Shown: positions 6,389 to 6,493 of the stretch, in pieces
How positions within the stretch are numbered: position 1 is the stretch's first letter
How the letters are laid out: every line of letters starts with the position of its first letter
DNA from: Escherichia coli
GTDB lineage: Bacteria > Pseudomonadota > Gammaproteobacteria > Enterobacterales > Enterobacteriaceae
Direction: 5' to 3' (one strand)
NCBI RefSeq assembly: GCF_001677475.2
Contig: NZ_CP015229.1
Length of the DNA: 64,000 nt
The notes under the pieces: model-generated
The model's database searches: none
What the model was told of the DNA's origin: nothing
What the model saw: the letters and a program-made list of their open reading frames with translations, nothing else
Translations under genes and position numbers: made by a program

Positions 6389-6493
6389 CTAGCGGGCATT
6401 AAAGAAATGAAAGTCAAAACTATTACGATGTGCAAACTTCATGATATGGGTTGTCCGCCTTATATGAGGCATTAAGCGGTTATTATTTTCCAT
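6389..6493 (-). CDS. speFL: speF leader peptide SpeFL (34 aa, ornithine-sensing arrest peptide)
   Basis: Reverse strand translates MENNNRLMPHIRRTTHIMKFAHRNSFDFHFFNAR-stop, about 300 bp upstream of speF; below the ORF-track size cutoff, found by reading the sequence; coordinates hand-derived. Confidence 0.8.
   Translation of the reverse strand: MENNNRLMPHIRRTTHIMKFAHRNSFDFHFFNAR

Follow-up and report, generated by a model that had tools for sequence, protein, structure and literature searches.

Introduction

The leader ORF speFL was described in 2019-2020, cryo-EM structures exist, and the gene is already routinely annotated by RefSeq.

In Escherichia coli K-12 (b4803; PDB 6TBV/6TC3; Herrero del Valle et al., bioRxiv 10.1101/604074), residues 1-13 of the peptide constitute the sensor domain, with the HIRRxxH loop at residues 10-16 and an ornithine pocket lined by Pro9, Arg12 and Arg13. 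Residues 14-34 make up the effector domain, which is built on Phe20, Phe26, Phe28, Phe30 and Phe31, and Asn32 displaces U2585 such that RF1 is inactive at the UAG stop codon (bioRxiv 10.1101/604074). Stalling is lost on mutation of H10, I11, R12, R13 or H16, and is lost or severely weakened on mutation of F26, F28, F30 or F31 (bioRxiv 10.1101/604074). The N-terminal hairpin of the peptide (residues 1-7) is also required for stalling. In the published model, the RNA hairpin over the stop codon is an RNA polymerase pause site (bioRxiv 10.1101/604074), and Rho dependence has been shown both in K-12 (bioRxiv 10.1101/604074) and in Salmonella (PMC6386406).

The Salmonella counterpart, orf34 (Ben-Zvi et al. 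2019, PMC6386406), belongs to the same family (DUF2618/PF10940), has the same Arg-Arg core and is also subject to Rho-dependent attenuation just past the stop-codon hairpin. Transcription starts 31 nt upstream of the orf34 AUG, and nucleotides ~99-125 of the ORF pair with the speF ribosome-binding site, as established by compensatory mutation (PMC6386406). In Salmonella, codons 12-13 additionally make the system responsive to arginine supply and tie it to RNase G decay, a layer shown only in that organism. A more distant analogy is the tryptophan-sensing leader TnaC of tnaCAB, in which a free amino acid likewise causes a stall at the leader's own stop codon, in turn keeping the release factor from acting and hiding the rut site from Rho (bioRxiv 10.1101/604074). 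TnaC is without sequence relationship to SpeFL, however, and differs in ligand, tunnel pocket and family.

Here, we analysed a stretch of 64,000 nucleotides from the E. coli contig NZ_CP015229.1 (assembly GCF_001677475.2; hereafter the window), in which a speFL ORF had been proposed by reading the intergenic sequence upstream of speF. From its sequence, the ORF is almost certainly speFL, the leader ORF of the speF-potE operon (Table 1), and its intact parts suggest that it would act by the mechanism established in K-12 and Salmonella. It shares with K-12 the 34 codons, the UAG stop, the sensor and effector residues, the codons ATA-AGG-CGG, the stop-codon hairpin, the match to the pause consensus and the place upstream of speF-potE beside kdpE. 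It differs from K-12 at residues 5 and 7 (N and L in the window, S and T in K-12), at 14% of the ORF nucleotides, in the length of the spacer to speF (309 nt versus 257 nt) and over much of the kdpE-speFL spacer. The Salmonella locus differs in having a spacer of ~380 nt and, in the strain of the published work, a UGA stop codon.

Table 1. Features of the speFL-speF-potE region, in window coordinates
Feature	Position	Strand	Basis
speFL ORF (34 codons plus TAG stop, ATG start)	6389..6493	minus	ORF listing, translation, PDB/Pfam/RefSeq matches
speF, inducible ornithine decarboxylase, the regulated gene	3881..6079	minus	NCBIfam TIGR04301, 1435 bits vs cut-off 1310; RefSeq start
potE, putrescine-ornithine antiporter, second gene of the operon	2565..3884	minus	NCBIfam NF007938, 856 bits; TIGR04299, 850 bits
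HIRRTTH ornithine-recognition motif, codons 10-16	6446..6466	minus	codon table; motif role from papers
Putative speFL Shine-Dalgarno region, purine-rich, AAAGGTAAAGG	6497..6507	minus	sequence just 5' of the ATG
Inferred -10 element TAGAAT (6533-6538) and transcription start (near 6524-6526)	6524..6538	minus	conservation between window and K-12; Salmonella transcription start
Stop-codon (RNA polymerase pause) hairpin, GCCC..UAGUC-UUCU-GACUA..GGGC	6371..6398	minus	folding, pair probabilities 0.74-1.0; covariation
Putative pause element, GGCACCTCAGCG	6363..6374	minus	match to G-11 G-10 ... Y-1 G+1 consensus (GGN8YG), 9 nt past the hairpin
C-rich, G-poor rut-like stretch	6285..6449	minus	composition, mid-speFL to ~100 nt past the stop
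Predicted long-range helix, 5' arm (speFL codons 24-32)	6400..6422	minus	MFE and centroid folds, mean pair probability 0.90
Predicted long-range helix, 3' arm (speF Shine-Dalgarno AAAGAG, start codon, first codons)	6068..6095	minus	predicted folds
Short ERIC/IRU repeat, two ends joined, centre missing	6234..6287	minus	51-nt gap in K-12; repeat copies; primer sites; folding

Results

A 34-codon ORF upstream of speF matches SpeFL

The minus-strand translation of the ORF is MENNNRLMPHIRRTTHIMKFAHRNSFDFHFFNAR, followed by the stop codon, and the plus strand of the same interval gives a meaningless translation. The original prediction of a 34-codon ORF was exact in both coordinates and peptide, with minus as its strand. 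It had also placed the ORF about 300 bp upstream of speF on the same strand, which agrees with a distance of 309 nt between the speFL stop codon and the speF ATG at 6079, the RefSeq-equivalent start (MSELK..., 732 aa); the distance to an alternative in-frame ATG at 6088 is 300 nt. The surrounding genes are, in order, seqA and pgm (plus strand) followed by potE, speF, speFL, kdpE (6768-7445), kdpD, kdpC, kdpB and kdpA (all minus strand). The 680-nt kdpE-speF spacer is overlapped by ~15 ORFs of at least 20 aa, so that a size of 34 codons is unremarkable and uninformative, and the case rests on the sequence match.

RefSeq WP_001312672.1, annotated as "leader peptide SpeFL", has exactly the sequence of the window peptide, which is the outcome of the alignment to annotated SpeFL that had been proposed as a check. 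Against the SpeFL chain of PDB 6TBV/6TC3, 32 of the 34 residues are identical with all 34 aligned (E 1.7e-18), and the substitutions S5N and T7L are the only differences from the K-12 b4803 peptide (MENNSRTMPH...). The Pfam model PF10940 ("Leader peptide SpeFL") gives the window peptide 27.9 bits, above its gathering score of 25. The founding K-12 SpeFL scores 23.8 bits with this model, under the gathering score of its own family. No NCBIfam model matched the 34-aa peptide. A megablast search with the kdpE-speF spacer retrieved E. coli genomes (99.3% identity) with a RefSeq speFL annotation in the corresponding place. Together, the RefSeq identity, the structural match, the Pfam score and the presence of speF and potE downstream, recognised by NCBIfam equivalog models, bear out the assignment to the ornithine-sensing arrest peptide of speF-potE.

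The sensor and effector residues are intact

Pro9 is followed by HIRRTTH at residues 10-16, and the rare codons ATA-AGG-CGG (codons 11-13, 6455-6463) are identical to those of K-12. All residues of the effector core (Phe20, Phe26, Phe28, Phe30, Phe31 and Asn32) are kept, and the ORF stops two codons after Asn32. [quoted passage not shown] Every residue whose mutation kills or severely impairs stalling (H10, I11, R12, R13, H16, F26, F28, F30 and F31) is present. The residues of the putative N-terminal hairpin (1-7) are also present, with the contact residues E2 and N3 retained and with the changes S5N and T7L relative to the K-12 peptide that was tested experimentally. Conservation of the arrest motif, the other check proposed at the outset, extends to all experimentally defined arrest and sensor motifs.

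RNA elements of the leader

The block assigned to the -10 element and transcription start is conserved between the window and K-12 despite the divergence of the surrounding spacer. A sigma-70 consensus scan upstream of speFL gave no convincing promoter, with sites no more numerous than in shuffled sequences and the 6524..6538 block left uncalled, so we only infer the promoter and the transcription start. An Rfam scan of 5900-6900 returned nothing above any gathering score, and there is no Rfam family for the speFL leader. The best sub-threshold match in that scan, isrH (6234-6290), is accounted for by the ERIC repeat described below.

The stop-codon hairpin is supported by comparison across species. 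Over 56 distinct species sequences, 87% of cells are paired, versus 25-43% when the partners are slid. Four pairs changed on both sides (31 cells), and the observed covariation score was reached by none of 500 shuffles; the wobble bases of codons 32 and 34 covary with the bases opposite them in the hairpin. With RNAalifold by itself, register shifts in the alignment limited recovery to the outer four pairs, and the full hairpin was scored explicitly. From the middle of speFL onward, the transcript has an excess of C over G of +4 to +10 per 60 nt across 6449-6285, which turns negative beyond. This rut-like composition is consistent with the proposed rut site and is no proof of it.

Folding of the whole leader predicts a long-range helix between the 3' part of speFL and the speF ribosome-binding site. 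The predicted anti-Shine-Dalgarno helix includes C116-G and A117-U, the same C116/A117 positions that are used by the Salmonella helix, and the K-12 leader folds with the same long-range helix. Over 58 sequences, 67% of cells are paired, versus 38-50% with slid partners; covariation did not rise above controls. The masking of the speF ribosome-binding site by this helix is thus a prediction of the folding models.

Proposed mechanism

By the scheme established in K-12 and Salmonella, transcription would start ~30 nt upstream of speFL, and RNA polymerase would pause just past the hairpin that encloses the stop codon. A ribosome translating speFL would open this hairpin. When ornithine is scarce, the ribosome would terminate at the UAG and depart, leaving bare the C-rich rut region (the 3' half of speFL and the sequence that follows). 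Rho could then load and end transcription shortly past the hairpin, ahead of speF, at a 3' end predicted near 6364, and the speF ribosome-binding site may in addition be masked by pairing with the 3' half of speFL.

With ample ornithine, the HIRRxxH loop of the growing peptide and the 23S rRNA would trap one molecule of it between them. Compaction of the C-terminal half, which is rich in Phe, would then push U2585 to where it obstructs release factor 1. The ribosome, now stalled on the stop codon, would cover the rut site and hold the anti-Shine-Dalgarno strand, and speF-potE would thus be transcribed and translated. The rare Arg codons 12-13 would slow trailing ribosomes.

Substitution pattern and distribution of SpeFL

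The speFL genes of the window and K-12 differ at 15 of 105 nucleotides, and the affected codons comprise 11 synonymous and 2 non-synonymous changes, a pattern that points to a translated peptide under purifying selection. All changes in codons 8-34 are silent. Both replaced residues, 5 and 7, fall where the family varies. The 45 distinct homologues of 34 aa include 36 with N and 9 with S at position 5, and at position 7 they show eleven different residues, with L tied for commonest; N5/L7 is the commonest state. Among 1.84 billion representative proteins, searched exhaustively with HMMER, 14 relatives were found, most of them starting with MENNNR.

A degenerate DNA pattern was also scanned against one genome per species and yielded 118 matching stretches, 117 of which are intact SpeFL-like ORFs. 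The pattern fixes residues 10-13, 16, 23, 26, 28, 31 and 32; conservation at these residues is circular and was therefore left uncounted. Outside the fixed pattern, M1, E2, N3, N4 and M18 are invariant over the 45 distinct peptides. Named Enterobacterales account for 78 of the 80 matches listed out of the 118, and the remaining two come from MAG contigs assigned to Collinsella and to Proteobacteria. Where 800 nt or more of DNA follows the ORF (102 loci), a speF homologue lies downstream on the same strand in 97. In these 97 species loci, the speFL-speF spacing ranges from 197 to 454 nt (median 257), a range that includes the 309 nt of the window. The stop codon is TAG in 69 and TAA in 49 of the 118 loci, and AGG is found at codon 12 in 75. 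Some genomes have two SpeFL-like ORFs, namely those of Edwardsiella (loci L011/L012, L066/L067 and L083/L084) and Kluyvera sichuanensis (L074/L075), with less than 550 nt of downstream DNA at the second copies.

Alternative explanations

An ORF of this length could be an untranslated frame that arose by chance in AT-rich intergenic DNA, as the ~15 frames overlapping the same spacer illustrate. The match to the solved SpeFL chain and the PF10940 score above threshold speak against chance, as does the excess of synonymous over non-synonymous codon changes relative to K-12. SpeFL-like frames at 118 Enterobacterales loci, all but one intact and nearly all upstream of speF, are likewise not expected from this explanation, and translation of orthologues has been demonstrated (bioRxiv 10.1101/604074; PMC6386406). 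We consider a chance frame already refuted by these results, with a negligible probability. Equally improbable is a gene in another frame, an overlapping minus-strand ORF of 44 codons (6472-6606) that covers the start of speFL out of frame and is annotated by RefSeq as the hypothetical protein WP_001295874.1 in SK1144 and many other genomes. This ORF has no Pfam match and is unannotated in K-12, where the diverged region contains indels that break the frame; it would also span the inferred promoter and transcription start of speFL. With no Pfam match and no conservation of its frame in K-12, the 44-codon ORF probably reflects an annotation error.

The conservation could also reside in the RNA only, as the hairpin, the rut site and the anti-Shine-Dalgarno strand, with the peptide itself irrelevant. 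The 3' third of the ORF is indeed constrained by structure, as seen in the covarying wobble bases of codons 32 and 34 and in the predicted pairing of codons 24-32 with the speF ribosome-binding site. However, substitutions are of the coding type along the whole ORF, including the 5' two-thirds, in which no conserved structure was found, and the five invariant residues lie outside the search pattern. In addition, a double-frameshifted template gave no stalling in vitro (bioRxiv 10.1101/604074). An RNA element with an irrelevant peptide is therefore very improbable, if marginally less so than the other two explanations, and the reading of the ORF as speFL is retained.

SpeFL-like ORFs in CFT073 and Proteus

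In E. coli CFT073 (L123; NC_004431.1, locus 3213-3856), speFL has lost codons 3-23 through an in-frame deletion of 63 nt. The deletion takes the whole HIRRxxH sensor and leaves a 13-codon ORF, MENSFDFHFFNAR, ending in the stop codon. The leader is otherwise ~99% identical, and speFL is unannotated there in RefSeq. Partial speFL matches like that of CFT073 were found in ~23 genomes.

In Proteus, we found a second SpeFL-like ORF of 33 aa, MENNNRKTPHIRRIAHIMMYKQRQCFHFSVFNG, which scores 32.8 bits with PF10940. The copy of Proteus penneri (L014) lies at 4290-4391 on the minus strand, with its downstream genes extending to 585; others are in loci L033, L050, L076, L108 and L120. The ORF is located not upstream of speF but ~136 nt upstream of genes for ornithine carbamoyltransferase, carbamate kinase and a YfcC-like antiporter. 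It appears that in Proteus a SpeFL paralogue was co-opted by an operon for ornithine carbamoyltransferase and carbamate kinase. The original SpeFL study searched only upstream of speF (bioRxiv 10.1101/604074), and our literature search found no paper naming both SpeFL and carbamoyltransferase.

Two leader haplotypes in E. coli

The 51-nt gap of K-12 relative to the window corresponds to a dispersed repeat that occurs in a median of 6 places per genome. Other copies of this repeat (at 62600-62720 of the window and near ybfA) run on into the ERIC1R and ERIC2 primer sites, which identifies the copy in the leader as a short ERIC with its ends joined. The copy at 62600-62720, on the minus strand, is a second ERIC that is diverged and full-length. 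The insertion of the short ERIC explains why the spacer measures 309 rather than 257 nt. In the predicted folds, the leader ERIC forms a hairpin of its own where the rut-like zone has its distal edge, and the predicted long-range helix is undisturbed. Its position falls in the 'ring' region, which controls mRNA decay in Salmonella.

Across 5426 complete E. coli genomes, ~3335 (~61%) carry the speFL allele of the window at a minimum identity of 95%, and 1704 (~31%) carry the K-12-type speFL at ~86%. The ERIC-bearing leader is present in 3342 genomes, a count so close to that of the allele that the two features appear linked. The leader of the window is thus the majority haplotype of E. coli and the K-12 leader a minority one, and the two kdpE-speF leader haplotypes, compared over 6389-6780 of the window, are deeply diverged (14% within speFL). 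No speFL match was obtained in ~383 of the 5426 complete genomes.

Discussion

As a discovery, speFL at this locus matters little, given that the gene is known and routinely annotated. The result does show that a 34-codon regulatory gene can be recovered from raw sequence by a reader. Three side observations may interest specialists: the leader variant carried by most E. coli, a model uropathogen, CFT073, that is without the sensor half of SpeFL, and the SpeFL-like leader of Proteus.

Work on the mechanism has so far used the K-12 (257-nt) or Salmonella leaders, and most E. coli carry the other variant. It is conceivable, if rather unlikely in our estimation, that the majority haplotype might differ from K-12 in its ornithine threshold, in Rho read-through or in the half-life of the speF-potE mRNA.
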